Below, one piece after another: positions 15,207 to 59,972 of a DNA stretch of 64,000 nt. The stretch's first letter is position 1. The number at the start of each line of letters is the position of its first letter. Source of the stretch: Rotaria socialis. Lineage: Eukaryota. The stretch lies in assembly GCA_905331295.1 (NCBI GenBank), contig CAJNYD010000464.1, positions 1 to 64,000 of the forward strand. The letters run 5' to 3'. The notes under the pieces are model-generated. The model saw only the letters and a list, made by a program, of their open reading frames with translations, had not been told where the DNA came from and ran no database searches. The position numbers and the translations under genes were made by a program.

Positions 15207-15299
15207 AATTTCATTGTTGAAGGCCGTCGAGTTAATGAATAAGCAGAAACAAGAAAAGGAACGAAGAAAAAGAAGAACACAGGCGATGAATACGAGGAT

Positions 15300-20878: not shown

Positions 20879-21116
20879 TTAACAACGACCACGACTAACA
20901 GCATGACAATCAAAACCACTCCAATCACCAAGTTGAGAAACCCGAGAACAACAATCAGGAAAATTGGGATGATCACACGTTTGACGTTGACTGATAAAAT
21001 GATGGAGAAGGTCCTTGCCAATCGCATGCTGAAACGTTGCGCTTTGTGCCATGCAGACTACCGCCAGTAGCACCAAGAAGACGGTCAAATAAATTAATTG
21101 GCTGACCTTTTGCCAT
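20879..21116 (-). CDS. Small secreted Cys-containing peptide precursor; start codon out of frame by one base
   Basis: KVSQLIYLTVFLVLLAVVCMAQS signal-like segment, then QTCDHPNFPDCC...C...C*. Removing one A from ATGGCAAAAG gives MAKVSQ. Confidence 0.55.
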
Positions 21117-35787: not shown

Positions 35788-36336
35788 CACACTAAATAAA
35801 AATGCGTCGGCTGTATGTGCCGTGAATTTTTGCGTCGCATTTTTAATTTAAAAAATGTGTCGTATATTTGTCGCGTTCTGCCAGTCGACTAGTCGTTCAC
35901 CATTTTGTTATGAACATACAGCGACATATAAGCAATATCGTTGAATGCATGGAAGATAAATTTTCGAAATAAAATTTTCTTTGGAATCGATTCTTGATTA
36001 CTTTATAATCAAGGAATTGCCATCCCGATCCATGATCCGGGAAGAACTACACTGGATAGTCTGATAGGAATCGAACCAATTCCAAATCAGCCAGATCTTA
36101 GGATCTAATCAGATTGAATGTTCAAAAAATAAAGAGATATGTGTAATTAAATTTTAAAAAATATCGAAATATGCGTTTCAAAAACAACCAATGAAAATGT
36201 GTCGGATGTGTTGTGAAAAATGCCTCGTGGTCTTGCTGAGCAGAATGTGGCGCAACGAGCACCTCATGTCGTGCTCGAATGTGTCGTGCTCGGTGTAGCA
36301 GTTTACGACACATCCGACACATTTTTACTTAGAGTG
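35788..36336. mobile_element. Non-autonomous DNA transposon with CAC...GTG termini flanked by TA
   Basis: Left tata|cacactaaataaaaatgcgtcgg; right reverse complement tata|cactctaagtaaaaatgtgtcgg; subterminal tgtgtcg repeats. Confidence 0.7.
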
Positions 36337-37243
36337 TATACTTCAACACTCCTTTTCGATCGTATTTTAAGAAGGTAAAGGAAACGAAAGAAAAATAATT
36401 TCATTCGCGCATGCGTAGTCGTTATTTTGAAGTGAAAGTGACTAAAATATAGAGAATGTTTTTAATCATACGAGAATTATTCTAACGGAGTTGTTTGTAT
36501 GAAATCAGATAGATTAACTTAATATCACACTTGGTTTAAATAATTTCTGAATACGATTTTCTTGAAATTTTATGGTTATTCAAATACATAGAGGATGCAT
36601 AGGATAGGATAGGGTAGGTACCGAGTCAGATGAGCAACAAAAAATAACGCGCTAAAAGAACTTGAAATTTCAGCGAAAAAAAAAGTGAAAATGTGAGTTT
36701 TTATGATTTTTTTCTTTTAAATTTTGACATGTTTTGACGAGTTCTTTTTCTGTTTGTTTGTCTGAACGAGCTGGGTGTGGGTGTGGCGTTATGGGGGTGC
36801 AGCTGCGCATAAACACGGAAAGATCACTATTCACCCACACCCTTGATACAACAATTGATTACTATAGGTATGCAGCAGTGTTGATTCAAATTGAATTTTT
36901 ACATTTTCAATCAATTGTATTATTGATTGAAATATGTCATCTACTTCATTAGTTATCAGTATCGTTTTGGATGATATGATCACTTATAAAGATAATATTC
37001 AATCAATCGAATGCTATTAGATCATGGGGCGACATGAAGAGAAAACGAGAAAATTTCATTTGTTTCAAACTGATCTAATTCAACTTGATTCACCAAATAA
37101 ATGAGGATATGAGCGTGGATGGATATTGACTGAACGCTTAACAACGCTCCACTGTACCTACACACACACCCACACTCCATTCATTCGATAAAAAACATGG
37201 ATAAGATGTTTACTTATTTTTGATGCACTACTGAATACTTTGT

Positions 37244-39090
37244 TCATGTCTCATTTATTTCCAACTTGATACTTCTGGTTTTATAAAATACGAATGTTGT
37301 GTCTATCGTTAATATCACTATAGCTGTAACCAGATAGTAGGCCATCAGTCTCCCGGTTAAAATCTTCCAGCCGAGAGACTGCTCGGCAAATGCAGCTGCA
37401 AAGAATGATATCGTTATACTAAGCATTGTAATCGCTTCGTATATTGAATGTACTTTTGGTTTTTCTTCCGGTTTGTGAGATTTCATTAGCAATGCTGATG
37501 AGGCTACGTACCCAAAGTTCCATCCAATACCAACAAAAATCAAACCTACATTGAAAGAACTAATTGCCATATTACGTTGAAGTAATAGTGCTCCTATCAA
37601 TTGAGTAACAAGACCAGCAACCATAAGTAGTCGACTACCACACCAGTTACATAGAGTTCCAGAAAAAAACGATGGAACAAACATGCCTAATAGATGGCAT
37701 TCGATAGCTGTTATTACTTGACGAAAACTGTAACCAAAACCAGTCATCGCTAAAGGTGTAGCCGACATTTGAACAGACATTGATGACCATGATACGAAGC
37801 CAATAAAAATGGCAACAAGAAATGTTCGTTGACCAGCTATTACGAATATTGAACGGCCGTCTAGACCAGAGTTACTGTTTCTTGTCGTTGATGATGAACT
37901 CGGTATAAGTGCAGCATATTTTGTGCTCATGTCGGGAAACTGGATTATTGTCATAAGGAATAGAAGCAGCAGGAATTCGCCTAATGTTGCTATATAAGCC
38001 CCGCAGTATGGTTTTGACAACATGTTTACTGTATGTGTAGCAATTTCTGGCCTAGAGTAAAACCAAATTAGTATAGATAGAAATGCTTCTGACGATATCT
38101 ATCTGCTTCTATCAGTGCGACTACCGTTCATGGCGAAATAACACGAGTAAGATCTCAACATATTTATCACTGCAACTGAAGTACTTCTGATAGTGCACTT
38201 CAGTCGCTATATGCTTAATGACGATCGTTGGTAGTCTTATGTGCTTTTCAATGTGCTATTTATTCATTGTCAAAACTGCTGTGAGTCATGGTGGAACTAT
38301 CAAAAGAGCTTGCGAGAGGTAAGTTCCGTTTTAAGTAATGTCGGAGGTGAGAGTTTTCTCAACTTAAAATATATGAAGAATTTTAGTAGACATTCAATGA
38401 TCTATCTAATCAGAAATATTCAGTTATTTTGTGGTCTTTCCTAAAAATGAATAGATTTTTGCTCTGTTCGATGTACATATTTTGACAAACAAATAATTAT
38501 GGTAAGCATGAGCCTACCCGAGTATTGTAGAGAAACAACCGCCAGCTATGACCATTGCTATGGCTTTTGGAGCAAATTCTTGCGTCGAAAACTGCAATGC
38601 TACCAGACGATAGTACAATGTGCACGGCAATTGTCCACCTAAAAATCCAGAACTCACGATTAACAACCAATAGAGCTTATACCATGCTGCTACAATGCTT
38701 AGTCCAGCTCCGATGGAGCCCATAAGAGCACCAAAATAAAATGGTCGTCGGTATCCAAACCGAGCTATTGCACGGGGCAAAAATATAGATGAAACGGTAC
38801 CAATTAAAAGCATTACGCCGATAGGTATCGTCGCCAGATTTGAATCGGTAAAACTTTTAGCCGCCACTGTTGTCGTGCTTACTTGAATATAATTTATGGC
38901 TTGACCGAGACTCCATGAACATGACAATAGAAATACATTCCATAACATTTTCCGGAACAACGGATCAGTCCATCGAGCGTGAAGACCATTTAGCGACCAA
39001 AACGATGGTAATTGAACATCAGTTGGATTCTGTTGTTGTTGTTCAATATGAACTGATTCATCATGTCGTGGAATGCCAATTTTTGCGAGA
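37244..39090 (-). CDS. Bacterial-type MFS transporter (RfnT-like); exons ~39090-38518 and 38051-37244; start unresolved
   Basis: A 466-nt intron joins AIAMVIAGGCFSTILG to PEIA. HLLGMFVPSFFSG and GIGWNFGYVASS motifs; about 12 hydrophobic segments. Confidence 0.8.
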
Positions 39091-40825
39091 GCTGAATCAA
39101 AAGGACGTATTATTCAGATTATTCGAATAGCACAAAGAACAAAACTCTGATCATTTATTCAGAAATTTTAATAATAATCTTGATTATTCTTATCTATAGA
39201 ATCTGCATATTTTATTTTATACTCAATTTAGTATGTGATATTGTATTCTGTATTTTTCATTTACTGTTCGTTCGATTTCTAACGATGAAAATAAATCTTT
39301 GAAAACATGAATTTCTTACCTTAATAAACATTTTCTGATTAAAACTGTGAAATTTTTCATAATTGTTAACTAGTTTTTCAATTGCTGTTTAGAAACGCTG
39401 TTACTCTGCCATTTTAAGGATCATTGGCGACTTTTCATGTAATTTTTTATATTCAACGCCGCTCTACACCGAACATCCACATAAAAACAATCAAAAATCC
39501 GATATATCTGAACGAATAACAACGGTAAACATGCAAGATGCAGAGTGGGATGCTCACATTTGATATTTGTAAAAATGTTCTTCCTTTTAATATGACATTC
39601 CATATTTCAACGGTTGTATCCTCAAGTTAAGTCTCTGATATTGAAATATATAAAATGGTCAAGCTATAGTCCTTATTTCCATACTACTGAAACAGTATGA
39701 ATATGAAATTTTATCAACAAAATGAAGTTTAAAAGAATTCAAACATTACAATGTGAACTATATTAACATAGAATATATTCAAATGGACAAATGAGGTGCT
39801 TTGTTGGTTTGACATTTTGAATATCGGATTCTCGCCGTCACTCCACTCTCGTGGTTGAATGGATTATGTGAATTAGATACAGTTTTTAATGTAAGACAAG
39901 CTACATATGTAAAAACAATTTGAAACTCAATATTGATACTAAGCGAAAGTAGTCCATACGATGATTGAATTGTAAAATTTTAAGAAAATTACAATGACTC
40001 GTACATGTTTCCAGCTACCTAAAATTAAAGTGCCCGAACAGCTCGTAAAGCTCTTTAGGGAGATAAGAAACAATGGGTTCTTTTCTGGAGAAGTTTGCTA
40101 CATAATCCTATCATGAAGATTTTTAAGAAATCTGCGTTGGTTCTGACTATTTTTTCTATCGTTCATTCAACTTCTGAAACTTAACTATTTAAATCATGAA
40201 CAGCAGCACTGGATTCAACCACTCGTTGTCTTGTCGTATTAGTGTCTTTCAAACCTTCTATTTCACCACGTTTTAATGTTACTGCGTCTTGAGAGCGTAC
40301 ATTGTCACTGATGGATGCCATGATTGGTACTTCGTTCTGTGTATCACTGTACAATGTCGTAGGATGACATGATTCAATATTGATTACTATGGTGTTTTCA
40401 GAATTGCTACATTTATCTGCGACATCGGATTCGACGACTTGGTTCGTAGATATGTTCATCTAGAAATGAGATAGGAATGTGTTCATCGTCTTTTTTTCTA
40501 TTTTCTATCGCATGTACAAAAGAATTACCTCGTCTGCAGCAAAATGATTTCAGTTTCACATAAAGAAATGTGCTTAATAACGATGATAAAATGTTTGTTG
40601 TTGATTCTTGGATGCAGTACAACAATGAAGAATCATTTCGACCTCTTATCTCTTCTGTGTTTGCCTTGTATTCTAATGGTATACGTAAAATGATACTTTA
40701 TAAACATAAAAAAAACGCTGTGGTATCAGAAGACAACAAGATTAGAGTAGATTTAGTATCCTTACCTTTCGGTGTGGGGTGAGGATCAAATAAATGTGGA
40801 AACTTCGGATTTCATCCGAAAGTTA

Positions 40826-41305
40826 TGTGTACTGCAAAAAGTGCATGGGATATATGAGTCATTCTAGAATGTCTGAACACCAAAATTATCATGAGAAACT
40901 AGGCAATTTGATTTCTGGATGCAGTTTTTGTGCATTTTGAGACGTTTTTCAGGCGATGCTTCATCAGAAAGCTACGGTTTAGCTCAAAACCAATATCAGA
41001 TTCGGAATCAGCGTTAAAAACTGAGTCGATTTATACATGTTGTGAATAATTCTGAGAAAGATTTATTTTTTGAAAAAAATTCCCTGTACTCCTCCTCAGG
41101 GATGACCTGGTCAAAAATGACAATTTTTTCGATAACTCAACCATTTCTTGAGGGATTCTTCTCATCTTCGAACTCGACTGAGATATTCATGAGATTGAAC
41201 TGTGTGGAAAATTTCATCACGATCTGGCTCTCCTTTCGCAAGTTATCGTGCCTACGGCCGGACACACTGACCGGTTCTAGAGTGTACTCACTTTTTGAGT
41301 ACACA
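40826..41305. mobile_element. MITE-like element
   Basis: Left tgtgtactgcaaaaagtg versus right reverse complement tgtgtactcaaaaagtg; both carry an inner tctagaa. Confidence 0.55.
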
Positions 41306-43205
41306 AAAAGGATGGTTTGAAATGCTTTGCTTGAATGGTATAACTTGTAATGATGATGGTGAAATGTTTTCATTAGTAGTAAAAACAAATTTTTCTATTC
41401 GTTTATTTACGCATTTTTTTAGCTTGACAAATCAATATCATGTTGTTGTCGAATAAAACGTTTCTTATTAAGTATTAATAAATTGTTACCTTGAGGGTGT
41501 GGGTGTAGATTAGTTCATCAGGGCAATACCCGCACCAGCCCAACCGCCCACACTCAGAACATAACCCTGATTGATTTCCGGTTTGATCCATACTCTAGAT
41601 TTCTTGTCCAACTAAATGTTAGCATAGTTTTCTTTTAAAAGTATGCGAAAGACCAGAAAATTATACAATTGTATGAAAAAACAATTAGTTAATATTCACA
41701 GGCAATTAGCTGGTATATCATCTTCACTGCTCTTGATAGCTGAATGCAAATAACTAATTCGTTCATCAACGAACGACTTAAAAAAAGTATTTACACGATA
41801 ATACGATTCTACTCCTGTTTTTCATTTAAGCTTAATAGTATATGGAAAACTATTGCAGCTCTATATCTTACTCATCCGCTCGGTTGAAACAAAAGGCAAC
41901 CATGTATTAATGCGATCATTAGTAATGTTTAAGATACACCAAAATTAGTAACAGTGGCACTGTAATGCCATACAGGAAGTTTTCTTATCGTATGTATCAG
42001 TTGTATTGATACTCGTTTAAAAAAATGCGAATGAATATTTTTTGACAGAAACACGAATGAAAATTTAAGTTTTCGAAACTTTTCAATGAACATTTTTAGA
42101 ATCAAACCTATCTGGTACGGGTTTTAGAGTAAGTTTTCAATAATCCAGTAGAAATTTAAACTTTTAAGAAACGATCTTCATAGTGGGAAAGATTAAGATG
42201 AACAATATGTATTCTAGTCGATCCTCCAATAAAATTTCCTAGAAAAATCTGTAAAAAAAAGTACACTTTTATCCTTTGTTCCAAGGGGGACAAAGCTTAT
42301 TGCCGTCAAAGCAATCATGAATTTATTTCCTATTATAGGATGATTGCCATTGTGCCGCATAATGAAAACTAAATGCAGTATCAAATGCACCCAGAGCCCA
42401 TCGTCTGATACTCAAAAAACCGAAAGCAATCAATGACAATCTTCACCATCAAAAAATCAGCTTCTCTTCACAGATATTAATACCGATCTAAAACACGATT
42501 ATCATCTTGCTCCGTGACGACAACGAAAAGTGTACCGAGAAACAAACTGGTGATGAAAACACAGATAGCAATTAAAGACAATACTGAAATATTATGATGA
42601 TGATTGCAATATATTACTTTCAAACAGAAACTCATAATTGAATTGTGATGCTTACAACTCTGCAAAACGGGCGGTGTCAAATCGATCCACAAGATAGTCC
42701 TATTTCAAAATCGTTTCGTCACTGTCGCTGGGAATTTATGTTGTCTGCTTTAAGGCAATACACGGCTTGATACAAATGGACAATTTTCATGGACGCTTCA
42801 TCGTGTATTCAATGAAATAGGTCAATAGCCTTCCGATACCACGTCTCTCCTTCACGTTACAGCATAAAGTACCTGTGATCACTACGTCAGTCCAATCGGA
42901 AAGTGTCATTGTTTTCAAGATAGATTTATTTAATTTACCGAAAGCTACAAAACTGTAAAAAAATCTGTACCAGAGAGACAAACATAGTCCGTAGACGCGA
43001 GTTACTTGAAATATATGCATATTTAAAATAAAATTATTAATGCTCATGTTCTCTCTTTAAAAATTTAATGCAACATGTCTAATACAGACGATTCGAGAGA
43101 TGTGTTTGCTCTTGATTTTTTACGATTATTCTATGGTAAAACGACTTTGATACTTTGCCGACTGAGTTAATAGTCAACTGCTAGTTGTGTCTAAGTGATA
43201 AAATG

Positions 43206-43520
43206 TTAGGACATTGAAAACAAAACAAATCTTGTTGTTCTTACATGAAGTTGTGTTGAATCACAAAGAAGAACATGAGGTATGTCATTTTGCTTGATAA
43301 GCACTGATATTTCTATGAGAGTATGTAAGATAAACTCACGGTAAATATGAATCGATCGTATTAAAATCCTCACCAGTAAAGCCGAGAACAATACCCTCGA
43401 TATTCTGTTCATCGTTCAAATGTTGAGTTACTTTTAAAAAAGTTTGTTTCGATTCTTCAGTGACTATCTCGAATGATAATTCATTCATAATAATATCATT
43501 CACTCGCATGATTTCTTCTT
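43206..43520 (-). pseudogene. 3' fragment of an aspartate/glutamate racemase family gene with a 61-nt intron
   Basis: Spliced product RVNDIIMNEL...IEGIVLGFT|EISVLIKQNDIPHVLLCDSTQLHV resembles the racemase ILGCTE..DTT..H region. Intron 43373-43313; N-terminal half missing. Confidence 0.7.
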
Positions 43521-43956
43521 GAGGGTGTGAGTGTTTGCAACAGGATAACACCCACGCCCGACCAAGTATGCTTCATTTACTTGCCTGTATAATATGCAAT
43601 CGGTGTACATAGAAACGCATGTAAAATTTTTCGCGAAAAAATTCTTGCCAAAGATAGATTTCACTATTACTCATTAAAAATTACAATGAATATCCCGATT
43701 AATGGCAGTGTTTATTCCGGCGTAACTTTATTTAATGAGAAATGTGAAGCCTATATCCGCATCCGTACCCACGCCCACACCCTCAAAATAGGATTTATGC
43801 ATGCTGAGATAGTTGCCATTATTTTGGTTCACCCGGCATATATAAATATATGAAGAAGATGTCAACAAGATAAAGTCTATAAAACCTTTCTATATTTATA
43901 TAAATTGACACTAAAAACACTAAAAAAATTGCATTTGAATTGGTTCTGTTGTACAT

Positions 43957-44398
43957 TTATCGTTGCAATGTTAATATACAGCAATTGCCGGATACGATTT
44001 CCTTCTTATTTTTCTTATTTTTTAAATACGTAACGAACTTCAAATTTGCTCGTCCACATAAGCATTGTTCGCATCGTTTGGTCAGTTGAACTTGTTTGAC
44101 AACGATCCATTCCTTTTTTTTTGTTAAGAAATTGAATATAATCATTCGTTAAAAAAATTCTCGGACGCAGAACATCTTTTTCAATGATGCATACCTTCTG
44201 AATTGAGGGCCATGTTTTGGCGACACTTATTTTTAATAATTTTGACCGAAATTTTTCTCCAGTTTTATTTGCAAATAATGACTTCTTATCTGTTTGACTG
44301 ATTTTGCTTGTCCAAGATGAACCACGGAATCGATCATGCATTAATTCAGAGCGTTTAATGACAATTTTTAGCAATTTCGTTTTGAATCGACGAGTCAT
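43957..44398 (-). CDS. Small basic Cys-motif hypothetical protein (two exons, intron 44194-44113)
   Basis: Splicing joins KISVAKTWPSIQK to EWIVVKQ...CEQCLCGRANLK...N...IVSGNCCI in frame; the acceptor is A-rich and atypical. Confidence 0.5.
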
Positions 44399-44770
44399 AA
44401 TGTATCTAATATTGTGTCAGGACCTTCTAGGATTTCGTTTTCGCACCAATGTTAAACTATGCTAATCACCTATCACTTTGATATGTAGACGTAAACAATA
44501 ATCTCTTTTTTTTCTTTGAAGATTCGTTAGAGAGTATATCATATATCGAATAGAAATGGATCAATCAAACTTAGCAAGGTCAAATGTCGAATACAATGAA
44601 TGGGGCGAAGAGGGGGTAGCAGTTAAATCACACCCTTTCTATCGAAAACAGACAAGTAGAAAGCAAGATTATATGTCTGTCTTAGCAAAGATTAATCAAG
44701 AAGAAACAGAACAATACTTTGTTCGTTGAGTTTTTATTACTTTAATATAAAAAACAAACAACTTTAGCCC

Positions 44771-44925
44771 TTGCCCACCCTCCCCTTTCTCTTATTCTCT
44801 CTCCGTCTTGCCCCTTTCTCTTTTTCTCTCCATTTTGCCCCCTTTTCTTTTTCGTTCTCCCAGTTCGCCCCTTTCTCTTTTTCTCTCTCCGCGGCCCCCT
44901 ATTTCCCCCTGGCCCTTTCACCCCT
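44771..44925. repeat. Pyrimidine-rich tandem repeat (about 27-33-bp unit, ttgcccctttctctttttctctcc)
   Basis: Four to five degenerate copies; gives a spurious APFSFSL ORF. Confidence 0.75.
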
Positions 44926-46261
44926 CAAGGTCTATTATTTTCGTTCCTTCGTCATGCCAATATGCTGCATTTGTATAGTATGTACAGTTGATAAAAAGAT
45001 TCTACCTTGTTGAAGATATAGATAGTTCTTGGCACAGCTATGATTCAAAAATTTTCTTTTTGAATAAACAAAATCAGTTCACAACAAATAAACTTTTCTC
45101 CTAATTATAAAAAGGAAATTTATGTAAGACGAATATCTCACGCAGAATTGCGCATCTCCATAAAAGTGATAGTGGTGCGTCTTGTATTCGTTATCATGGA
45201 GATGTTCAGCGTTGATCTCAAGTATATTCTAGGATCCAAAATTATCGACACAACATCGGGTTTGCTCAACAAAGGCAAAACTTCAGTTTTTTTTCTTCTC
45301 TTTATTATTACTGTTCTCGTATAATGTCAGATTTAACTCATGTTCTAATATATAAGATGATGATCGAAATCAGCAATTACACAAGAACAAAATAGAAATT
45401 CTTCTTTTTCATTGAAACATAACTAAATTCATTTTAACGATAATGTCTTTTCATTTTATTCCTGTAGCACGAATAATGAAAGAAACTAAAGCATATTTTA
45501 AGGATTTTCACATTGAACGCTCACTCGTTGACATTACATTTACCTCTTAGATCATCCATGTTCTCTTCTCGGTGCTCTTCTCATTAAGAATCAATTCAAT
45601 CTAGTGAGAGAAAAAGCAAGGATAATATATAAAAGAAATAAAGCATGAAGGAATGCGCATTGAATAAAAGATATAGATAAGAGCAAAATGAGTCAAAGAA
45701 TATAACATGCCTCATCACCGACAGAAAGATGGATCCATACACATTATAAAGAGGACAGAAAAAAAATGAATCAGATTAAGACGAACAATACATCAAGTTA
45801 AAAAAAGTGCTCAAACACGACGGATAAACAACTTTGTGGGCGATATCGAAATGTTCAATCTATTTATTGTCCGATAAAATTTGCGAGAATGACGAAAAGT
45901 ACGAATGGTGAACAAAGGAGAAAGAAAGAAAGAAAATGATGAAAATTCAAGTTGTAATCGTCGAGAGAACGGATGAATATGATTATTGAAGAAACGTACA
46001 AGGACGAAAGCTTGAGAAAAATTTTCTGGAAGAATGTCGACCATGATCACTAATCTCGACAGGCAGAAACACAATTGAATGCAGAAAGAACGATGCATAA
46101 TCATGAGCGTGAAATGTCACGTACTAGAAAAAATTACTGATAACACACCGAGTGTCCAAATGAAAAAAAAGTGTGAGGAGATTGTGCAACAAGTTAAATT
46201 CAGAGTGACTTCTTGAAGAGAATGATACCATAGTCGACTGGCTGAAAATTCAAGTTGATCA

Positions 46262-47094
46262 ATGGAGGTGAGTTTGTCGAATTTAAACATACCTGCTGCA
46301 TGCTTACTATGCATAGAACAGAGATTCTATTTACAATTTTCTTATATTGCTATTGCAGGTTGTCGAAGTGCATTATTCAGCTGCATCGTACAGTCTGGTA
46401 TCAAAATAGATTTTTTTTTGTATATCAATTGTGCATATTTTTTATCAAGATTAATTATATTGTAGCTATACTATTTTTCTTACTTGAATATTGTCTTGGA
46501 TTTAAATATATGTTTCTTGGTTTAACAATAATCGAATAGATGAAATCGAAAAATAGTAATTTGGATTTTTTGTTGTGATCTAAACTCTTCCGATTTTCAT
46601 TAGCTTCAACGTTTCTCGATCAAAACTTCATTTTGTAGGAGGAGCAGATGACTCGTAGACCCAATGTGTGTTACCGATCAATATATGGAGCAATACAGTG
46701 CGTTCGTTACTTTTTTTTATTGCTTATTTCAACATGTGGCTTGTTTCGTAGCTTGTACGACATGCTTTCATTTATTGCTCAATATTTTATTGGTCATCAT
46801 CTTTTTGCACACGATTTTATTCATAAATACCCAGCAGATATTGTACTTATGCATCGATTATACGAAGTCGAACAAGGAAATACATTGACGGGTCAAATTA
46901 TCGATCAACTGTTAAGAAAACTTACGTTTCTCGAGAAAATTACCGTAATTGATCAGCTTTCATTTTGTTTTATTTCTTCTTATCTCGTTATTCTATTTTT
47001 TTTCTTAATAATTATGGTATTCAATGCATTTTCACATACTATCATTAAGCAAGTCATGCCCAAATTTGTTTTGCACTGTATTCCTCTTTACTGA
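46262..47094 (+). pseudogene. Possible degraded multi-pass membrane protein gene
   Basis: Hydrophobic ORF pieces with an internal stop at 46463 and an acceptor-like tttgtag before 46640; no family recognised. Confidence 0.3.
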
Positions 47095-47204
47095 TGATTT
47101 ACAACTATTTCGCTATCCAGTGATCAATCGTATCGTCCAAAAGAATCATTATCTTTCTTCCAGATAAATCATCCTGTTCGGCTAGCTTCACTCTGGTTCT
47201 TTCT

Positions 47205-47922
47205 AAACGAAAAATATAATTAGAGAATTTTAGATATTAAACAAATATATTCTAAACGGATCTCGAAATCACTTTTTCTATATAGCATGAACAGTTTATT
47301 TATATGTCGTCCTATCCTATTTTTATATCAAAACAGATATAAAACTTATTCAAGTGTAAAAAAACACTTATGGATTGAAAATAATACAACTGCTAAAATA
47401 TAGTTGGAAGAAGAAAACAATCAATCAGAAATTATTGAGACAATGTTAATTGATCCTGTTTTTCATAAGCCTACAAATGAAACTAGAAACCTGAAACTTG
47501 TTGATAAGATAAATAATAAAGCAAATTTTTGCACTCAATGAAAAGTAATCTTTCAAGAGAACTTTTCGTGAGAAAAACGATGGTCTCCTTGTTTTTGCCG
47601 TAAAATATCCTAGATTGTTCAATTATATTTTAATAATTAGTCATAAATCAAATAATTACCTAATAAAAACCTCATATCTTCATTTGATTGAAAATTATTT
47701 CTGCTTAGAAGAAATTATTCAGGATTAAGACTAGAAATACGGTCTGACGAGCGAATGAATCATCTGCAAATAATACTTCGAATAGTTCAATAATAGGCAT
47801 TTAAAATGAAAATCATTTCGTCATCTTATTTCAAGTGCAATCTCATGATATCAATAATGCTTATAGTTTATTCTCTACAATTACCAATAAATCAAATTAT
47901 ATCTATGTCACTGTGTTTAAAC
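47205..47922 (+). pseudogene. Truncated paralog of the 5' part of the PPR-DYW gene
   Basis: Collinear similarity to 10450-10615, 11350-11690 and 12250-12422 (shared ttattctctacaattaccaataaatcaaattatatctatg); lacks the MITE. Confidence 0.85.
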
Positions 47923-48233
47923 GATGTGGGTGAGCGTGAATTGTATTTCAGAGAACAGGCACGTACAGCTCGCCCTATAATTACGTAAATACATTACATA
48001 TTGTATTTTCTACAATAACTACAATTTTCTCGGAACGCGTACATTTGGCACATGTATACATTTAATATTTTCTCTATTGTTATCATCGTATCTGGTTTTT
48101 CTAATCTCGCATCATTTTTGTACATCTTCAATCAAATATGCAACATGAGCTTTTCAAAAATGATTTATTCTATTGCATAATATATTTCATTCATCCTTAC
48201 AAAGTTCAACTAAAAAGCCTATTATGACACAGT

Positions 48234-50306
48234 CTATTGTGGTCTCGACTTATTTAGCGATGCATGTCCATATTTTTCAAGCCATTTAAGTTCTTCTCGA
48301 ACTTTGATCTTTCCATGCCATGGATTGATAGTCAGGTCGTGTCCTTCGTTTGGAAAAAGTAATAATTTCACAGGAACACCAAGATAATGTAACCCGCGTT
48401 CTAACGTTACACTTTCAGACGGAGGAACACGTAGATCATTTGCACCACTAACTATATGTGTTGGCGTTTGGACGTAACCTAATTTAAACATAATCGATTC
48501 TTCATAATAGGTTTCCGGTATTTCCCACGGATATCCACCAATATAAGATGCAATATACAACGGCGTATCCATCGTACCCCATAAAGAAACATGCTCAACT
48601 GGTCCAGCACCGGATACAGCAGCATTAAACCGCGTTGTTTGGGTAATCAACCAGTTTGTTAAAAATCCACCATAACTAAAACCGCCAACAGTAAGTCTAT
48701 TTGGATCAGCGATGCCATCGGCAATTAAAGTATCAACGCCAGCAAGAATATCTCGTCCTGGTCGAGATAAAGGATGACCAATAAGTTCACTTAAAAATGC
48801 ATCGCCATATCCCGCCGAACCTCGATAATTAGGTTCCAAAACTAGCCAACCTTCAGTAGCTGCTAATGGAGCCCACGAATACCAATCTCCGATTAACATA
48901 TTGAGACTTGTAGCTGATGGACCTCCATGAATAAGTACAAATAATGGCAAATTTTTACATTCAAACTTTCCCGGTGGATAATGTAGAATTCCTTCGATTG
49001 TACGATCATCTTCACTATTAATCCATCGATATACTTTTGCTCGAGGTAGATTTCGTTCACGAAGAAGTTGATTTTCACAAGTAACAGCTTTCGCGACATA
49101 TAATTGATTGATATTTTCAACAAAATAAACCTCTAATGCGCTTTCAAATGATGAATGAGCAAATGCAATCGACAGTGAATGTGGTGATGTGGCCGAGGAA
49201 ATCAATTGATATGTTCCTTCCCATCCGTGCTGTAACATTACAAACTTTGATGATGACTGCTGTACATATATTTGAACATTGACTCCTAATTGTCCAAGTA
49301 TATAAACACCACCCTGTGGTCGAATTGTATAGCCTATAATATTTCCATTGAAGCCTTTTCCCCAATGTTCAGTCACTCCAGTTGTTAAATCGACCGAGCC
49401 TAATGCATTTTGTGTATCATTATATTTTCCACCAGTCGGTCCCATGGAACCTATTACAAAGAATAGATGTTTACCGTCGGGTGATAATTGCAGATTTTGT
49501 TCCATCATTTTGTTATCTGTTAATCTAGATAGTAAAGATACATTTCTGAGATCAAGTGCGTATATTTCGAAATCATGTGAATTTTCGACAAGCGTTGATA
49601 CGGATGTAAAGACAAGTTTATTTTCCGCTGGAACCAATAAGAGTTCACCAACTAGAAAATCGATATTGGTAATAGTCGTAATTTTCACAGATATTTTATG
49701 ATTTTTATTTTTAATATCAATACGATGGAGAGTAGTACTATCTGTCGGTTTTCGTTGTCGATATTGAACAACATCCTTCCATTCGTTTTGATTCGTCTTG
49801 TTGTCTTCTTGAGATGATGCTATTGAAATGAAATAAAGTGAATTATCATCATTGCCCCATACGATTGCCAGTGGGTTGTGGTTTCCGACTTCGATCAATA
49901 ACGTTTCTTCGGAAATAATATTATATAAATGAATATATTTTTCATTTTTCACCGGTCGAGAACGTTCGTTAATGTTGATTGGGTCTGTTTGTGAGCTTTC
50001 ATCGATTAAGTAATAAATCCAAGCACCACTCGGTGACCATTTTGGTTTGACATTGGGATAGAGTTGGTTAGTAATCAATTTTTTTTGTGTAGTTTCAGTT
50101 CGATAAAGCCACAATGCATCTTCATATCGATTCGATTCCCAAGCAGGACGCAAACTGTGAACTAATAAATAACCAGCATCAGGTGAAAGACTCAATGATT
50201 TATATTGGGTTGAATTAAGAAAATCATCAATTGTTAACTTTGGAAGTGTTTCTGTTGAAAAGCAATGGAAATATGCTACGACGAGCACTAATAAGTAACA
50301 CTTCAT
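48234..50306 (-). CDS. Secreted S9 family peptidase (dipeptidyl aminopeptidase / acylaminoacyl-peptidase type), 690 aa, intronless
   Basis: Signal peptide, SPD/WSP propeller repeats, IHGGP, PNYRGSAGYG, GFSYGG (Ser), DLRV (Asp), EGHD (His). Confidence 0.93.
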   Translation of the reverse strand: MKCYLLVLVVAYFHCFSTETLPKLTIDDFLNSTQYKSLSLSPDAGYLLVHSLRPAWESNRYEDALWLYRTETTQKKLITNQLYPNVKPKWSPSGAWIYYLIDESSQTDPININERSRPVKNEKYIHLYNIISEETLLIEVGNHNPLAIVWGNDDNSLYFISIASSQEDNKTNQNEWKDVVQYRQRKPTDSTTLHRIDIKNKNHKISVKITTITNIDFLVGELLLVPAENKLVFTSVSTLVENSHDFEIYALDLRNVSLLSRLTDNKMMEQNLQLSPDGKHLFFVIGSMGPTGGKYNDTQNALGSVDLTTGVTEHWGKGFNGNIIGYTIRPQGGVYILGQLGVNVQIYVQQSSSKFVMLQHGWEGTYQLISSATSPHSLSIAFAHSSFESALEVYFVENINQLYVAKAVTCENQLLRERNLPRAKVYRWINSEDDRTIEGILHYPPGKFECKNLPLFVLIHGGPSATSLNMLIGDWYSWAPLAATEGWLVLEPNYRGSAGYGDAFLSELIGHPLSRPGRDILAGVDTLIADGIADPNRLTVGGFSYGGFLTNWLITQTTRFNAAVSGAGPVEHVSLWGTMDTPLYIASYIGGYPWEIPETYYEESIMFKLGYVQTPTHIVSGANDLRVPPSESVTLERGLHYLGVPVKLLLFPNEGHDLTINPWHGKIKVREELKWLEKYGHASLNKSRPQ

Positions 50307-53300
50307 GTTGTCGACTTAACACAACGCTATCGTATCGTAGAATTTGATATGAAGAGCTTAATACAATGTGGTTTTATGATTTATTTAACCGTCAGAATTT
50401 ATAATAAAGGCAACTGTAGGTAAACACAGGTGCATGTAGCCAATATTCTCTAGGTGAATAAAGAGCACAAGGGATTAATTTGATTCTATTCTCTTGTTAT
50501 TGCTTTGTGTTGATTAAATACCAGTTAACATTTTACATCATCATCCAGAAAACATCTGTTTCCTCGTTTTTAAGCCTATCTCAAGTACATGTCATGCTGT
50601 TGGATTAGCGTTTTGTGCACGATAAAAAAATGAAGCTGATTCAAATCGTTGGTATACAAATGATGAAGAACCGCTTTATTAAAATATCAATACATATAGT
50701 ACATGGAGCACTGTAGACAAATCAAGACACTTGCATCTTTAACTGTCTGTTGATTCACTACAAGGGTTACTTTGAATATCAATATATGGATGAAATATTG
50801 GCTCTTTCTGCTCACTTGTCCTTTCAAAACAGATAGACGACGATGAGTTTCCAAGGTCAAAAATCGGCAATCAAGTTTTATCGGATATTTTTCTTGAAGG
50901 AGCTGTCGAATATGTCTTAACATTTTGTAAATATCGCATTAATTGTCGAGGGTTCGGAAGCAATTTGCTTTCCTGAAATACTGATTTCAATACTCCTGAA
51001 GTATTTTGGAATCCATTGTTTTTGATATTGGAAATCTAATCGGATATTTTCAGGAATAGTCAGTGTAGTCTAGGAAATTTATATCGTCAAAAATTAAGCG
51101 GAAGTCATTTGAAATATGCGGAAATTCCCTGTTGGCGTCCAAAATGTTGCTCCGAGTATATTCAATCTAAAAATCGTATGATAATGAATCGAAATTCGAC
51201 TCTGAGTTGTTGTTGGCTAAAACGAAAGTCTTCGATATTTCCAGAATGTTCTCGAAACTGAAACTGCTCACAATAATAAACATAGCCTAATCCATCAGGA
51301 ATCTTCCCTTCTATGAGCCATTTTAATTCCATTAAAATAACCTTATGTTATCATTACATTCTTGCACTGTTTTCGATTTCGAATACACTTTAAGGGATTA
51401 AGTTAGTGGGTATGTTAACGTTAAGATGACAAGTAAATAAGATAGACGGACAGCTAAAGGGATAGGTTTGTCGGTTCAAATCGTGCAAGCACACAGATCG
51501 AGTGTATTGTAACTGTGACGAAATTTTTAGCGTGAATTGAAGACGGTTTGGTATGAAACCATATTTTTACGAAACTCAAAAAAAGAAGGTTTCGATTTCG
51601 TTGCACATCTCTGAACCTTTATTCAGTCCCGTATGAAACTTTTTTTCAGTGTAGATAAATTGTACAACCTTGTTAAAAACCCGACCTGGTTCAGTCGGAT
51701 TCCTTTATTTTTCTAGCATGACCCGATATGATCTCGCCGCATTCCAGGTCACTGGACTTAGGGTTCGTTTCGATAAGATTCATCGGTCGGAATTCTCGAC
51801 TTGGGTGAATCCGACCTTTGTTCAAAAACAAACCAAAAAAGATAGAAAAGAACACGGTTTTGTATCTTTTGTTAGAATATTAAACTGTTCTAAGCAATGC
51901 TTTAGCACAATCAAGCAAATATGATCGTCGATAAACTTCACGTCAAGATAAACAGATTTCAACTTGATCAAGATTCCAAAGATCTATTTTATTTGTATGT
52001 TTAATAGTTTCCAAATGAAATCTTCTTGCACGAAATAAACGGCCATTTTCCCTCGAATAATTTTAATAGCAATTGCATAAATCTGCTTTTATAGTAACAG
52101 CCTTATTAGTTATTTCACCCCTGATCCATTTGTAAAATGAACGATCAAATTGGAACACAACGCTATTTATCAGAAAATAAATACAATTTCTCTCTACTTT
52201 CTGTGGTTCGTTTCGAAAAGGATACTAAAGCTAATAAAATTGTGGTGACTGTTTCAAGCAATCCTATATGTTTAACTCGCATTTTATATTCGGTTGATGC
52301 AAAAAAACTGAAAAAAAACAAATAGAAAGCAGCAATACTGTCAATGGATCGTACATTTGTCGATTATGCAATCTGATTTTATGAGAATCATGTCAATTTT
52401 TATGTGTGGACATAGCCAATGTAACAATTGTTGATCTCATTTGAATATTAGATGTTTTGTGATCAAGGTATAGTCAAATCTACCGAATGTCTTGAACAAT
52501 CTCAGAAAGACGAAGTCTTTGTTATAAAATTATTTTCTAGTCAAAAATAATGTCTGATCGAGGTTTCACGAATGATTTATTTACGGATTACGAGTAATAT
52601 CTTGTTTAATTGCGATGCGAATACATTTGATTGGTTTTATATTCATTTTGTTCTTTGGTTGCTCTTTGAAAACTAAACTTTTTATTTCTGAATAACAACA
52701 CACTACAGGGAAGGAAACGATAAATTTTCATAAGAATTGAGAAAATAGAGCACTAGGAAATAAACAAGAAAAAATAGAATATAAAACAGCTATGAAGATC
52801 ATTATCTTTTTTTTTAATAATTTCGTTGTCATACATTTGTCTGGTCCTCAGTATCATTTTTACTATGAATTCCAGTCACAATATTTCCCTGCAGAAGGGG
52901 GTCTACAAGATACTGATTCTTGACATCAAATTTGCTGGTGATTGTAAACAGCATAGACATGATTATTCAGAATTTATTAATTCTAAAGAGACACTTACTC
53001 GTGGCCACCAATTATACGTCCTGAAAGTTGTTGTGCATTTTCTTGTCGACTACACGTACTACTCTCGATTGGCTGTATATAACTGATACGCTCTCTATAA
53101 TCTCTCATCGATTGCTAGAGAATATTTCGAAGATGCTTGACTTATGACTATTCTTAAATATTCTTGATAAGTGCAATCGCTTCATCCATGAATCAACAAC
53201 TATATGAATGGAAATGCATAGAGAAAGTCTACACACGAATTGTAGATAACTGCCAAAGTGCTGGATTTTACAAGAATGGCATACTTAGTTAAACTGATTG

Positions 53301-56045
53301 ACTTCAAATTCAAAGAATGGAAATCTTCCGGTTTTTCTCGAGAATTGACCTCATGGATGAAGAGGTCTATACAAAAAACATTACATATATTCATGTAAAA
53401 AGTTTATTTCTTAAACATTTTTTCATACAAATCTTGAGCAGTATCATATCGACTGTATACAGCCATTGTACAATAAGCAAGAAGCAAGCTATTTGAAATC
53501 AATTTGGTCCGATGCATGATTATTGTAGAAAGATACAGGATGTGAGAGTTTTTTGTATTTGAAAATAAACCGATGACTAACTAGTCATTTTTATTATTAT
53601 TACTGGCGATGTGATTTCATAAGATGGCGACATCTCGATTGGTACTTATCGTTCTAATGCATATCTACGGTCTAGCAATTTTCATGAGTACTATGCGTTT
53701 ACAAATTGGTTTTTCTTTCTGTGCTCGTTGCATTTCGTTTTTTCTTACATTTGCGGTAGGTATGCAATACAAACATGAGAATGAGGAAGGCTATGATGGC
53801 TGTTAGTGGGATCTCACTTCTAGCAGAAACTAAGAGCTAAGTAAAATACTCAAATTCTATCAAAAGACTAATGCTGTGACACTAAACTGGGAATTTTTGC
53901 TCGCAGAAAAAAATCGATTTTGAGATTCGAGATCTACTCCAATGCATGTAGATCGTTACATGAATATATTGCAATTACCGTCACCACATCAATAATCAAG
54001 AGTTAATAACCATATATTTCAATAACGAAAATATTTTTGTGGCGGTCTAATAAAAGCTCGTCAGATAGAAGATTTTTTCTCACTGTTGATGAAGCATGAA
54101 ATTATCTTTCGAGTAATGATTATTTGGAAAAGAGCTTGATTTACTTCCGTTCAAATATTTATGAATCTTTTTAGTTTTTTTCTCAAGTTATCTTTGACTT
54201 TTGTATTTTATTTTTGTTCAATTATTGAGACATTTACCATTGCCAATAGTTCGAAGGGGTTTGATTGTATTCTTCTTTTGGTTCGCTTCGCCGGTTATTT
54301 GTGGTTCTTCATTTGCTCTTACGCGATAATTGTCAAATGGATGGACGATCTTATCTGTATAGTTGGCATTCATGCTTCCTCGTAAAATTTAAAATTAAAA
54401 CGAAAAGACAGATTTTAATATAGCTATGACTTTAGAGTTTTTCACTTAATATTGAACTGCATGCTTCTTTTGTTAGTTACTGGTATGAGATTTATTTCGT
54501 GGAAATGAGTTTTACAAAGAAAAATGTAAGTATACGTGTTACAGCTTCTACAACGCTAAATTTGTCATTAGAAACCTTAGATTTAAGGTACATGATTACG
54601 AAAGCTTTTTCAATTATCAGCATGAGAAAACAAGAATCAAACTAATCTTAACCAGTTTCGTGTACATTTTGCAGAGTAAACATTGATAATCTATCCTGTT
54701 TTTGAAGAATATAAGATTTAAAACAAGGGTTGAAGTATTACGATTTCAAAATTTGTATACATTCGATCCTAATTAGTCATTAGACTTATGGAAAGAAAAA
54801 CGTTACTGACTATTTGTCAACGAATTTTAAAGATTCATTAGACAATGTTTTGACATTTGAGAAATTTCAGATGATTTATGATCAAAGTTGGAAAATGGCT
54901 TAAGATTATTATCTAACTGAGGTTGTTTAAAATAATCCTTTGTTAGATATAACTAGGGTTGGTACATTTACTTTATTTTTTTCCAAAGTAAATAAGTAAA
55001 GTAAATATAAAGTGCCACCTCTAGATCTTATACGTTGCTCGCGAAAAATAAAATATTTCCACTCATCGAAGCTATAGAATTTGTTTTTATTTAGACGATT
55101 TCATCTTTCTAGCAACAATACAACTACCATGTCTGCTATGGTTGTTTCTCGCTAAGAAACGTACGATTCAAGTGACACTCGTAAAATTGATTCTCTCGAA
55201 AACAGTTTAAAATATGCAAAAAATGAAATTATTTACTCTTCTGCATACCAAACTGTTCAATCATAAGTGAGAAGGCAGCAAAAAGAAAAGATTACTCTGT
55301 TCAATTCTATTTCAAGATTTTAATTTACAACTAGCGACGCATATTCTTGTCGGTGAAAAACGAGTGACTATTATGATCTTGAGATGTGCATTTCTGCTAT
55401 GCAGAGTATTACAGCCGCATTCCTGTTACAGTTTCACTCACTGCAGCTGAACATCGCTTCATGTAATTTGAGGTGCTCTGTTGTCTCTGTATACTACAAG
55501 TCTTACGTTTCTACAGCATTTGATACCAATGTGAGAATGTAGTAGGTAATAATTTCCAACAAGCACTCTTTTTTCTGAATTTCAAGTTTCTGATCTGACC
55601 ATCCTGGTAACAATAATAGTTGTTTGCCCGATAGCATTACTGCACAATTTTCCGTTCAAGTTTCTAATCCAGCTGGAAAACTCTGCACCTGCGTGATATC
55701 GTTTGCTTAGTCTAATTCATACATGGAACCGGTACTGGTCTGTTGGCGATCTATTACTGGTCTAACTTTTTAATTTTCCTGCTTTTATCACAAACACTAG
55801 TACAAAGTTGTTATTTGCAGAACGATATAGCTATATCGTTCTGTAAGGATGTGGGTGTGGGAATATGCACACAAGAACACACACACTCACATTCTCAAGA
55901 ACGAATGCAGATGTCAAAGATTGACCGTAGTTCACTTATTTCAATATGAAAAGTTGATCTTTACGTTTTCATGAGTACCTGTTGATCGTTTAAAGAGTGT
56001 TAAAAATATTTTAAACAATTTTTGTTCTAGATACAGAATTTTTAT

Positions 56046-58489
56046 ATGGCTTCTAGTAGTTTTCATGAAAAACCTTCGGCTCTGCGATTTACCGACGTGG
56101 GTGAATTGCCAAAACGAATGTTGGCACCGATCGAAGGCTATGAGACGGTTCCACTTGTATCTCTCGAAGAAGCTGTAAAACCTCTTGTGGATATAGTACC
56201 AAACGTCGAACGAAATGTATATGTAGTGAAAGAGAACTGTCAAGATCCAGAAGATGGCTTAACAACTGACGAATCAGCTTCGATTATGCTTTATACGTAC
56301 GAGTCAATACCGCATGAAAACTCGTTGTATGTTAAATTGAATGACACTACGATCTGAAGAAAGAAAACATCTAGTTCCATGGTTCCTCTATCTTCGACTC
56401 ATGCTGACTGCACTTGCTCGACTTCCATCAAAGCGTCGTTCAATTTTCCGAGGAGTCAAAAAGGAATTATGGCTCGACTATCCAGAAGGGAAAGTTTTTA
56501 TTTGGTGGGGTTTTTCTTCATGCACTTCGACTATCGGAGTGTTGAAGAATGAACATTTTTTTGGCAAAACAGGTGAAAGAACTCTTTTTAAAATAAAGTG
56601 CACTACAGCCAAGAACATAAAGAAACATTCATTTATAGTCAATGAGGATGAAATACTTCTATTAACCGCTAGACAATTTGAGGTTAAATCATGTCTAAAT
56701 CCTGGAAACGGACTTCATATTGTACAACTCAAAGAGTTGAAGCCAAAGTTCGATCTTCTTCAACCAGTCTCAATACCTAATTTAACAGTTCAGTCCAATA
56801 TAAGTTCGCAAGGTATATCTCCACCAATCTCTGGAGCCATGGGAGCACAATTTTCAGCCACGCAAGCAACATCAAAATGTAAGTCATACTTCATGAATCA
56901 ATTAGATATGTGTTACTTAGGCGTTAATAGAGATAATGCATTAAAACATTAGTGAAAAATATAAATCATCTTCATACTGCATCATAAAAGAACAAAAGAA
57001 AAAAGCAGTGATTATTAGCAAGTAATAGTAGACGTCTGATAATAACGATTCGTATAAAGTCAGGTGTTAAGAGCATACCACAGTAGTGTAGTTTGATATA
57101 TTTTCAAAGAGTATATTTGTGGCATGCCAATTTAGTTAGGGTCAAAATACTATTTTCTGAATTTGTATTTCATATAGAAATATTTAATGAGGTGCTTCGA
57201 GAGTTTTCTTTTCCTTTTACTTACTAAAAAACGTACGCATGCTTTTTGTGACCTCACGATCTTAGATATGATCAGTCAGAAAAGAATTCATTCTTTTTAA
57301 ATTCGAAATAATAAAACGAAAAAGTTTGGCGCCATTTTCTTTTTATTAATATGCTGAACAGTTACAAAATACCTGGGTGTAGGTACGAATGTGGATGTGT
57401 TCGTAATCCACACCGGCACCCTCACTTGTCAGCAAAATATTAGCTTACAAGCTTTGAATCACGCCGGGCGGTTCCCTCGTAAGACTATACTTGCGAGAGC
57501 AGTTTTTTCCCCTAATATCGCTACCACTTCAGAGATAGAGTGAGCGATCTCCTTTGATTGTACGTTCTCTCTTCTAGTTGATATTCCTGATAATGCTGAA
57601 TGGACACAGAACGGAGTGACGATTGCTGGAAGTCACGGGCAAGGCGATGCCACTAATCAACTCTTCTGGCCCCATGGTCTTTTCGTTGATGACGATCAAA
57701 CAGTGGCTGTTGCTGACTTTGGGAATGATCGCATCATCCAATGGAAGAAAGATGATACAACGAATGGACAAGTTATTGCTGGTGGCAAAGACCAAGGAAA
57801 TGGATTGAATCAATTGAATCGACCAACAGATGTATTAATTGACAAAGAGACGGATAGTCTCATTATTTGTGATTGGCAGAATCAACGAGTTGTGCGATGG
57901 TCTCGTCGTAGTGGTACAACACAAGAAGAAATATTCATAGACAACATCGCTTGTTATGGATTGGCATTGAATGAACAGAGATATCTCTACGTCTCTGGCA
58001 CCAAAAAACATGAAGTAAGACTATATCAATTGGGTGGGAAGAATTACACTGTCGTAGCTGGTGGAAATGGGCAAGGTGATGGTCTCAATCAACTCAAATT
58101 TCCGGCATATCTCTTTGTCGATCGACAACAGAATGTTTACATATCAGACTGGAATAATCATCGTGTAATGAAATGGACTATAGATGCACAAGGAAGGTGT
58201 TGTCGTCGCTGGAGGTCAAGGCTTAGGGAATGATCGGACACAACTTTATTGTCCTAATGGACTTTTCGTTGATGCGTTGGGTACACTCTATGTAGCAGAC
58301 TCTTGGAATCATCGTGTAATGCGTTGGACTCAATGAGCGAAAAAAGGCACTATAATTGTGGGTGGAAATGGCCGAGGAGAAGGAGCAAATCAGTTCAACA
58401 TCCCCATTAGTTTGTCTTTCGATCGATATTTCAATCTTTATGTCACCGATTATAATAATAATTGTGTTAAACGATTTTCAATCGAATAG
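56046..58489 (+). pseudogene. ADP-ribosyltransferase plus NHL-repeat gene; exons 56046-56878 and 57578-58489; disrupted
   Basis: ART motifs IFRG, WGFSSCT and EDEILL; NHL repeats (VAGGNGQG..LNQL..P..LFVD..YISDWNNHRVMKW). Frameshifts near 56348 and 58190; TGA at 58334. Confidence 0.88.
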
Positions 58490-59972
58490 ACTTATGAATT
58501 GTCGATTTTCGTTTCTTTCTCTTTTTCTACTTTGAAATAAATGAAAAAGAAAATTTCTTTCTTTCTCTCTCTCTCTCTCTCTCTCGTTCGAAAGAAAAGA
58601 ACATCCTTACTGAATTTGGTTGTTCGTTTTGAGATTGACCTAAAATCAGAGAGATAAAATTTTTTCCTATTGTATCAAATATTAGGATAGTTATTTACGA
58701 GATATTGAATTTATCTTTCATCGACAGTTTCGATTCATTCTAACAAAAATTGAAGTTTTTTGAAAATAGCCGAGCACGAAATTTTATGAATCAACGAATT
58801 GCAATAGAACTATTTAAAAGTAATTTGCTCTTTATAATATGAGTTGACAGTTAATTTTATACAATTATGAGAAAAAGATTAATAAAAGTAGTGATTAATG
58901 ATATTTGTTCAAAAGAAAAACTTTTCGTTAGATTCATCACAATTAAAAGTGATTTTGTCAGATTTATATATTATAAGAATACGGTTGCATAACTTCTTAA
59001 CAAATTTTCTATGATCATTAAACACAAAATCGATGTCAAAGTCATGTGATATCTACTGGAATTAAGTCGAAAATAAAAGTCAAAGTCATTGAACAAATAT
59101 GCTCTCTCTCTGCAATCATCTCACAGCTTCTACCATCAATAATTGTTGGCAAACCATGCATAAATACATGTAATGAACTCAACTGCGGTAAATTTTAGAG
59201 TGAATACACAGCCGCTGATCAATTTGGTAGTTTATAGTTAGGATCAAAATAAAAAAGAAGAATACGAACAGAGAGAATAGTGGGTAGAAATAAAGAACAG
59301 TTGTTCAGACAATTAATACTATTCACCAGAGTTATAGTGCGAAGAGTAGATAAATATATAGGAATGGATTTATTATAACACAACAAGGGCAACGTTTCAA
59401 TGCAATCAGATAATACCACATGAAGTAAAGAACACTTAGATTATACGAAATTTCGACTTGATGCATCGAGTGTGCAAATATATGATTGATTCACTGTCGG
59501 ATTATTGAGAAAAGGTGCTTCAAGTACTTTTATTTTAGTGACGTATTTTTCTTCAGACTATTTCTGAAAGAATTCATCAAATGCCCGTGGAAGAGTATAT
59601 CACATATGATGATACTATGGACTTCCACATCTCTTGAGGGCGTGGGTAGGAGTATTTTATAGGCAACTTGTAGCCGTCACTTTCACATCCGCCCTCTTCC
59701 TTTTAATCCGCGATCAGGATCAATGCATACTCGAGAGATATAAATAAAATAAGTGCTTGTTGCGATGAAAATTGTTGATTATATCTCATATCCTTCAACT
59801 GGCATTTGATGTTGTTATTTGAGAAAGGCTTCGTAAATAGTAAATATTTGATGTAATACAACATAGAACGCGCACATCTTTACTATTTTAGTCACATATT
59901 GTGTTGAAGAAAAATTTATTTCTTACATTGACTCACACATCGGCAGACTGCGAGCAAGACAAAACTGACACG

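Follow-up and report, generated by a model that had tools for sequence, protein, structure and literature searches.

In the 64,000-nucleotide stretch of Rotaria socialis DNA analyzed here (contig CAJNYD010000464.1, positions 1 to 64,000, referred to as the window), a partial copy of a PPR-DYW gene ends at a short sequence made of two opposed telomere-like tracts. Both the junction and the recurrent element are real, and the element is likely to be the repair scar of two telomere-tailed ends. The account we favor for the joint at the PPR end, and hold to be reasonably probable, is double-strand break repair in which two unrelated ends each received a telomere-type tail of about 20 to 40 nt and were then ligated; the joint is thus likely a repair footprint rather than a working element. 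A short signature of fixed orientation, countable and datable in assemblies, would offer a way to test how bdelloids mend broken chromosomes and acquire foreign DNA.

The PPR remnant and its junction

When the window is compared with itself, 10443-12422 and 47198-47921 form colinear blocks; nine ungapped blocks have a mean identity of 82% (70-88%) and take in introns and promoter as well as exon. The copy at 47198-47921 comprises the promoter, part of exon 1, an intron, and an exon ending ...NYIYVTVFK, with several internal gaps and with all 3' sequence missing. In the longer copy, exon 12478-12987 is 100% identical to the R. socialis predicted proteins P0033 and P0037. That copy has an exon 1 stop and frame breaks and may itself be a pseudogene. 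The features at and around the junction are the following.

10556..14590, + strand: near-complete PPR-DYW gene with a stop in exon 1; the comparison copy
47198..47921, + strand: 5' remnant of a PPR-DYW gene, 82% mean identity to 10443-12422
47923..47939, + strand: G-rich arm, GA followed by TGTGGG TGAGCG TGA (about 2.5 telomere-like units), run score 12.5
47940..47959, no strand: joint middle, with no clear repeat and no match to the middles of other elements
47960..47975, - strand: C-rich arm, decayed, reading GGGCGAGCTGTACGTG on the - strand
48234..50306, - strand: S9 peptidase gene, intact, with the stop 259 nt to the right of the joint

The exon at 12338-12422 aligns with 47837-47921 at 88% identity. 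The last matching base is 47921, the next pair (C47922 and G12423) is mismatched, and the G-rich arm (GATGTGGGTGAGCGTG, 47923-47938) starts 1-3 nt past the end of the homology. The sequence-only reading had claimed that PPR homology ends at this junction and that the downstream PPR exons are absent, and it had proposed a pairwise alignment with the paralog as the check. Letters and coordinates proved to be as written there, and in the alignment homology stops at 47921, with none past 47980. Likewise, the downstream exons could not be found: a word-7 blastn search with 12424-14500 gave just one match right of 47921 (25 nt, E 0.39), tblastn with 120 PPR homologues matched only the exon at 47826-47921 near the junction, and the score of 47932-48010 against the next PPR intron and exon was equaled by 49% of 850 control windows. 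Because nothing 3' of 12423 matches rightwards and the S9 stop is only 259 nt off, the PPR copy is truly truncated and does not simply run on into a diverged intron. The homology ends at a splice donor, where exon gives way to intron in the comparison copy. Gaps elsewhere in the remnant are without a telomere-like tract in both motif scans, so not every breakpoint is marked.

The same reading had described what follows as a telomere-like inverted repeat. Opposed telomere-like tracts are indeed present, with the right arm (CACGTACAGCTCGCCC, 47960-47975) falling under the threshold of both motif scans. The hairpin is not borne out: it is no better than that of shuffled sequence (z -0.8; 45 of 200 shuffles fold as well), and a hairpin function at this site was rejected on these grounds. 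For the PPR-junction element, a pair of opposed telomere-like tracts is therefore a better description than inverted repeat or hairpin. Three of six elements tested fold better than shuffles, as complementary arms would, and it is the class as a whole, across the window, that exceeds chance, not the PPR-junction hairpin alone.

The earlier reading had also named misassembly as a possible refutation, and this does not apply. Single contigs from three of three DNA runs (X4 from the study of the possible source samples, X3 and X6 from a different one) cross the junction without difference, extending over 47878-48900 in X3 and X4 and 47878-48737 in X6 with 0 other letters and 0 gaps. These are short-read contigs with 44 letters left of the junction; the link leftwards of 47865 crosses 42 nt identical to the paralog (47866-47907) and rests on the window assembly. 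A putative RNA run, X9, covers the region from 48149 rightwards only and was left out. The depth of the X3 contig right of the junction is 63 versus 126-136. A second allele was considered as the cause of this lower right-side depth and rejected; the 42-nt identical stretch explains the contig break. In each of X3, X4, and X6 there is also a contig with about 88% similarity over 47626-47762; it lacks 47763-47913 and resumes at 47914, where it has 42 letters beyond the gap. The contig table suggests that this is a second PPR remnant sharing the junction to about 47955, with the left arm apparently included.

The intron of the longer PPR copy carries an insertion of about 550 nt (11686-12250) that is absent from the remnant at 47751. 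Its terminal inverted repeats measure 35 nt (86%), and a direct repeat of 9 nt, CGAATAAGT, lies on either side; a duplication of 9 nt points to a Mutator-like MITE. Pieces of the last PPR intron (14216-14471) match, in inverted orientation, 34977-35062 and 36337-36367, which lie 1.3 kb apart; the matching stretches are probably the ends of a related transposon.

Paired telomere-like elements across the window

The PPR-junction element is one of about 15 in the window, in each of which a G-rich telomere-like tract faces a C-rich one. The scan was made against (TG[AT]GGG)n with no trained matrix, and 10 third-order Markov sequences served as controls. At score 7, 66 runs gave 14 G-then-C pairs and 0 C-then-G pairs, where the controls averaged 0.5 and 0.7 with a maximum of 2. 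The counts were 11 versus 0 at score 8, and the contrast was weaker at score 6 (17 versus 5); a matrix trained on the window found 54 sites and again 14 G-then-C pairs versus 0. The set of 15 used for statistics comprises 13 of the 14 score-7 pairs, 59636-59692 (found with the trained matrix), and the PPR-junction element; the pair at 8981-9025 was excluded as doubtful. Apart from the elements at the PPR, F-box, and racemase breaks, the set contains twelve, spanning 5634..59692.

5634..5690: paired element
8791..8866: paired element
17267..17337: paired element
24851..24924: paired element
25239..25290: paired element
27827..27908: paired element
36772..36843: paired element
37102..37175: paired element
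41492..41556: paired element
55843..55892: paired element
57374..57425: paired element
59636..59692: paired element

The elements are 40-82 nt long (median 64, n = 15) and occur at a density of about one pair per 4 kb in the window, many of them 70-540 nt from gene ends. Each consists of two opposed tracts that are sharply bounded on the outside and blurred toward the middle, since the outer flanks show no G/C skew (51/55 and 54/57) and the skew inside flips at the midpoint (13 of 14 non-tied elements). Indeed, the skew remains when 18 nt are trimmed from each end (left 55 G/22 C, right 32 G/53 C, p 2e-5). Only the outer 12 nt or so of the arms are near exact, and the inner part keeps the G/C skew only. 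The commonest arm units are TGTGGG and TGGGTG (15 each) and TGAGGG (6). The telomeres of A. vaga and P. roseola are built of these units (PMC7943196), and those of R. socialis itself may differ. TGTGGG is found 58,964 times in A. vaga noncoding sequence, versus 9,720 for TTGGGG (PMC7943196). Words in excess in the window are GGGTGTGGG, with 8 occurrences versus 0 in shuffles, and TGTGGG, with 27 versus 9.8.

Between the arms there is no conserved cut motif of the kind a programmed chromosome breakage site would have, and the middles share no sequence: all-against-all blastn of 25 regions returned nothing beyond matches between arms, overlaps, and short AT-rich stretches. A flanking direct repeat of at least 4 nt is present at 3 of 15 elements (4, 5, and 8 nt) and absent from the PPR junction. 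Rfam gave 0 matches in the whole window.

Strong C-rich arms with no visible partner within 70 nt were seen at 20632-20648, 29092-29141, and 43767-43785. The element at 57374-57425 is flanked by an ART-domain ORF and an NHL-repeat ORF, both on one strand; should the two belong to a single gene, the element would be an insertion without loss.

A metagenome scan with the PPR alignment gave five loci (four of 1.2-1.9 kb within the gene and one of 10 kb), with no motif except a G run. A metagenome contig with a rotifer-type PPR-DYW gene (L005:1-10163) contains no such pair over its 10 kb, so pair density may vary by region or species. In viral contigs, the exact pair pattern gave two phage matches, which were taken as chance.

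Breaks in an F-box-like gene and a racemase gene

Flanks were compared with relatives at 3 of the 15 elements (PPR, F-box, and racemase), and at these three a gene remnant ends no more than 3 nt from the outer edge of an arm. The F-box and racemase cases were found starting from the arms, by comparison at the protein rather than the DNA level; a codon-score screen of 39 arm flanks gave leads, and the racemase lead was confirmed.

6280..7695, + strand: F-box-like pseudogene, cut after ...IIDK (protein comparison)
7696..7759, no strand: second element, at the F-box break
43209..43518, - strand: 3' remnant of an Asp/Glu racemase gene (protein comparison)
43520..43559, no strand: third element, at the racemase break (TGAGGG TGTGAG TG ... 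CACCCACGCCC)

The F-box match stops at 7695, mid-exon, and the arm runs from 7696. Three of 11 homologues are full-length (P0125, P0128, and P0129) and go on for about 95 residues, four read through into the arm (P0121 and P0122 from R. socialis, P0123 and P0124 from R. magnacalcarata), and in three the gene model splices its way out of the arm (P0033, P0126, and P0127); P0130 has a shorter, partly different tail after the break point. The read-through in both species dates the break across R. socialis and R. magnacalcarata. Among the matches listed, the missing C-terminus (the last 95 or so residues) has no significant match in the window. The copies vary inside the arm (DVGE, GVGE, and GVSE), and the codons past the break would not seem to fit an intron there. 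The 12-mer GATGTGGGTGAG of the PPR junction is also present at 7699, in this unrelated gene.

Against a 214-residue R. sordida protein, the racemase remnant begins at residue 159, with 71% identity over 56 residues. Its match begins at 43518 and the arm at 43520, 2 nt apart. The racemase, on the other strand, lost its 5' part, so the break rule is independent of transcription direction. All three breaks are at G-rich arms. The chance that a random break falls within 3 nt of an arm edge is 0.3-0.9%, and three such coincidences would arise by chance with a probability of about 0.001 or less if 20 gene breaks in the window are assumed.

These cases uphold the sequence-only reading in its claim that the repeats mark breakpoints, at 3 of the 15 elements. 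Its choice of the PPR site as the clearest internal evidence has to be given up, as the end there lies on an exon/intron border and the right arm is decayed. Clearer are the F-box break at 7695, which is mid-exon and dated over two species, and the racemase break at 43518, on the other strand.

For a C-rich-arm candidate at 25221-25424, neither the homologue search nor the ESM Atlas yielded anything; for 12 ORFs close to arms (62478-62588 and 36834-36983 among them) there was no Pfam match above the curated cut-off. At 25290-25424, a - strand frame starting MTDEKRR runs into a C-rich arm. At 62449-62588, a C-rich arm adjoins a short - strand frame (...YYPRVLKQSIDAVDERF...) with no Pfam match; this is a candidate C-arm break, and the frame may be akin to the end of a hAT transposase.

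The P0033 model joins the F-box remnant to the PPR gene via a GTGAG splice inside the arm (7699-7710 and 12336), and P0126, P0127, P0144, and P0145 look like fusion artifacts of the same kind. Gene predictors take GTGAG in the arms as a splice donor, with the result that remnants are fused into false genes, as in P0033.

Origin of the joints

From the truncation, the two tracts, their fixed order, the narrow length, and the matching geometry at two other gene breaks, we infer the following course of events. A break would have cut the PPR gene copy near the exon end, and a telomere-type RT would have extended the 3' end with TGTGGG/TGAGGG units, too few for a stable telomere. The second end would have been tailed likewise, so that the order is always G-rich and then C-rich. 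End joining would then have sealed the tails, leaving a middle of untemplated or error-prone filler, and the remainder of the gene would have been lost or moved. The joint would since have aged neutrally, and later duplications would have copied it together with its flank. As R. socialis does not live through desiccation cycles (it is a non-desiccating species), drying need not be the source of the breaks. De novo telomere addition produces a G-rich tract that, read 5' to 3', leads away from the cut gene; if the facing C-rich tract is the same tailing on the partner end, brief tailing of both ends followed by ligation is the simplest account. Telomerase is more likely as the enzyme than an Athena-type RT. 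In human cells, short telomerase products unbound by shelterin are argued to be end-joined (10.1101/2022.10.31.514589).

The elements are missing from the loci of relatives at 3 of 15 sites, at the DNA level for PPR and at the protein level for F-box and racemase, where the comparison is with paralogs or relatives rather than with an empty allele. The changes of end joining are present, with gene parts missing and the middle unmatched; for the register of the first repeat with the break, the comparison copies are too diverged or consist of protein only. Remnant and paralog differ by about 18% in total, which bounds the decay since the break, and the middle is nevertheless without a clear repeat; the F-box middle was non-telomeric already in the ancestor of its copies. 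Taken together, these two points suggest sloppy or untemplated synthesis at joining, with selection on the outer 12 nt as the alternative. The inner parts are far less telomere-like than the outer ones, which simple addition and even decay do not predict and which counts against the proposed repair, as do the weak right arm and the splice-donor coincidence at the PPR site, the confinement of the three known breaks to G-rich arms, a pair density far above that of vertebrate examples, the lack of any pair in L005, and the weaker contrast at score 6.

A wider proposal, which we put forward tentatively and regard as rather doubtful, is that in the bdelloid germ line every free end routinely gets a measured telomere-type tail of 20-40 nt, accurate at first and then increasingly sloppy, and that such tails are universal adaptors joining unrelated ends. 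If true, gene-family and foreign-gene regions would be stitched from fragments, with thousands of datable joints per genome.

The pairs might instead be functional sites between genes at which a telomere-type or GT-box protein binds (a boundary, roadblock terminator, or promoter element), with deletions tolerated or stopping only there. Regular spacing, the short distance of many elements to gene ends, and the better preservation of the outer 12 nt, as selection would give, speak for such sites; we consider them unlikely, however, in view of the three elements that adjoin cut genes (one mid-exon), the variation of the arms in sequence and length, even within the arm among F-box copies, the lack of any pair across 10 kb of L005, and a position tied to neither one gene end nor strand. 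Repair by copying or capturing old degenerate subtelomeric repeat DNA, instead of fresh addition, would account for degenerate inner parts that keep their strand skew and for an F-box middle that was non-telomeric before its copies diverged. Nevertheless, it is decidedly unlikely: the middles of different elements share no sequence, and the fixed G-then-C order and the 40-82 nt length are given no reason. Inverted ends, a narrow size range, and many copies recall tiny transposon remnants whose telomere-like terminal inverted repeats caused adjacent deletions, an origin that is quite improbable for elements with no interior in common and ends not fixed in sequence, with direct repeats of differing length at 3 of 15 and none at the PPR junction, which moreover folds like shuffles.

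Two further alternatives concern the PPR junction itself. An ordinary deletion could have brought the exon end up against another exon end of that gene, ATGTGG|GT at 12983-12990, the telomere likeness being chance; the two share 8 nt (ATGTGGGT), a short ATG microhomology could have mediated the event, and other gaps in the PPR remnant are without a telomere-like tract. Past those 8 nt, however, similarity does not rise above the 850 controls, and the recurrence of the 12-mer at 7699 in an unrelated gene also makes this very improbable. That the junction is an assembly chimera, as the 42 nt identical to the paralog just to its left might lead one to suspect, is barely credible given the single contigs that span it unchanged in all three DNA runs of the two studies.

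As likely joints of two telomere-tailed ends, the elements can be set beside known systems. Short ITS, neotelomeres, and telomere fusions are the nearest of these, and short paired head-to-head tails at this density appear to be new within the literature searched. Short ITS at vertebrate double-strand breaks (PMC8537989, PMC7215372) resemble the elements in having few telomere units internally, flanking loss, and added non-telomeric letters. In vertebrates, however, head-to-head repeats are rare (3 of 41 TERC-ITS, ascribed to a second telomerase; PMC8537989), the repeats show little or no deviation from the unit, and there are 142 loci in the horse genome, whereas here head-to-head is the rule at about one per 4 kb, fidelity drops inward, and large gene parts are missing. 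The elements, whose repeats are not exact throughout, differ from plain short ITS and would be a variant working alike. In A. vaga, telomere repeats lie at deletion breakpoints in a few lines, and the neotelomeres and Athena at breakpoints share with our case a bdelloid host, the same repeat, and a place at break ends; the authors propose transient neotelomeres leaving scars (PMC13564844). Those are capped ends in a few experimental lines, not face-to-face tails that became fixed in the germ line of different species.

Repeats inside a joint of once-separate ends are likewise found in fusion-type ITS (human 2q13) and in the telomere-spanning arm fusions of cancer (10.1101/2023.11.30.569101). 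The example described has about 650 bp of repeats and real subtelomere, in contrast to the 2-6 units per tract, starting inside a gene, seen here. The head-to-head orientation of fusion-type ITS is found in our elements (14 versus 0); long arrays between former chromosome ends are not, the elements being 40-82 nt long with three starting in genes. The bdelloid endonuclease-less Penelope-like elements (Athena) prime synthesis at exposed ends or breaks, followed by telomere repeats, and their RT could make the tails (PMC3846280); their additions would be expected to leave repeats in a single orientation, whereas two opposed orientations are present here. Athena or Terminon additions would have element-derived sequence or a hammerhead ribozyme beside the repeats; no element sequence was recognized in the middles, and Rfam had 0 matches in the window. 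For a MITE or telomere-bearing transposon, a shared interior is lacking, as is a target duplication of fixed length (none at 12 of 15 elements). An interstitial telomeric excess in A. vaga has been read as a possible old fusion (PMC8494291). The bdelloid telomere literature searched holds no account of dense short paired tails; the 2017 Terminon and 2007 telomeric-retroelement papers may hold one.

Bdelloid subterminal regions are described as marked by repetitive and foreign genes with short telomeric stretches (PMC2861651). The window contains PPR-DYW, F-box-like, TPR, S9 peptidase, ART, NHL, and MFS genes, that is, expanded families and enzymes, and may itself occupy a subterminal position. 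It also contains a MITE-like inverted repeat (9698-9990, 92 nt at 80%) and an assembly gap of 996 N (19096-20091).
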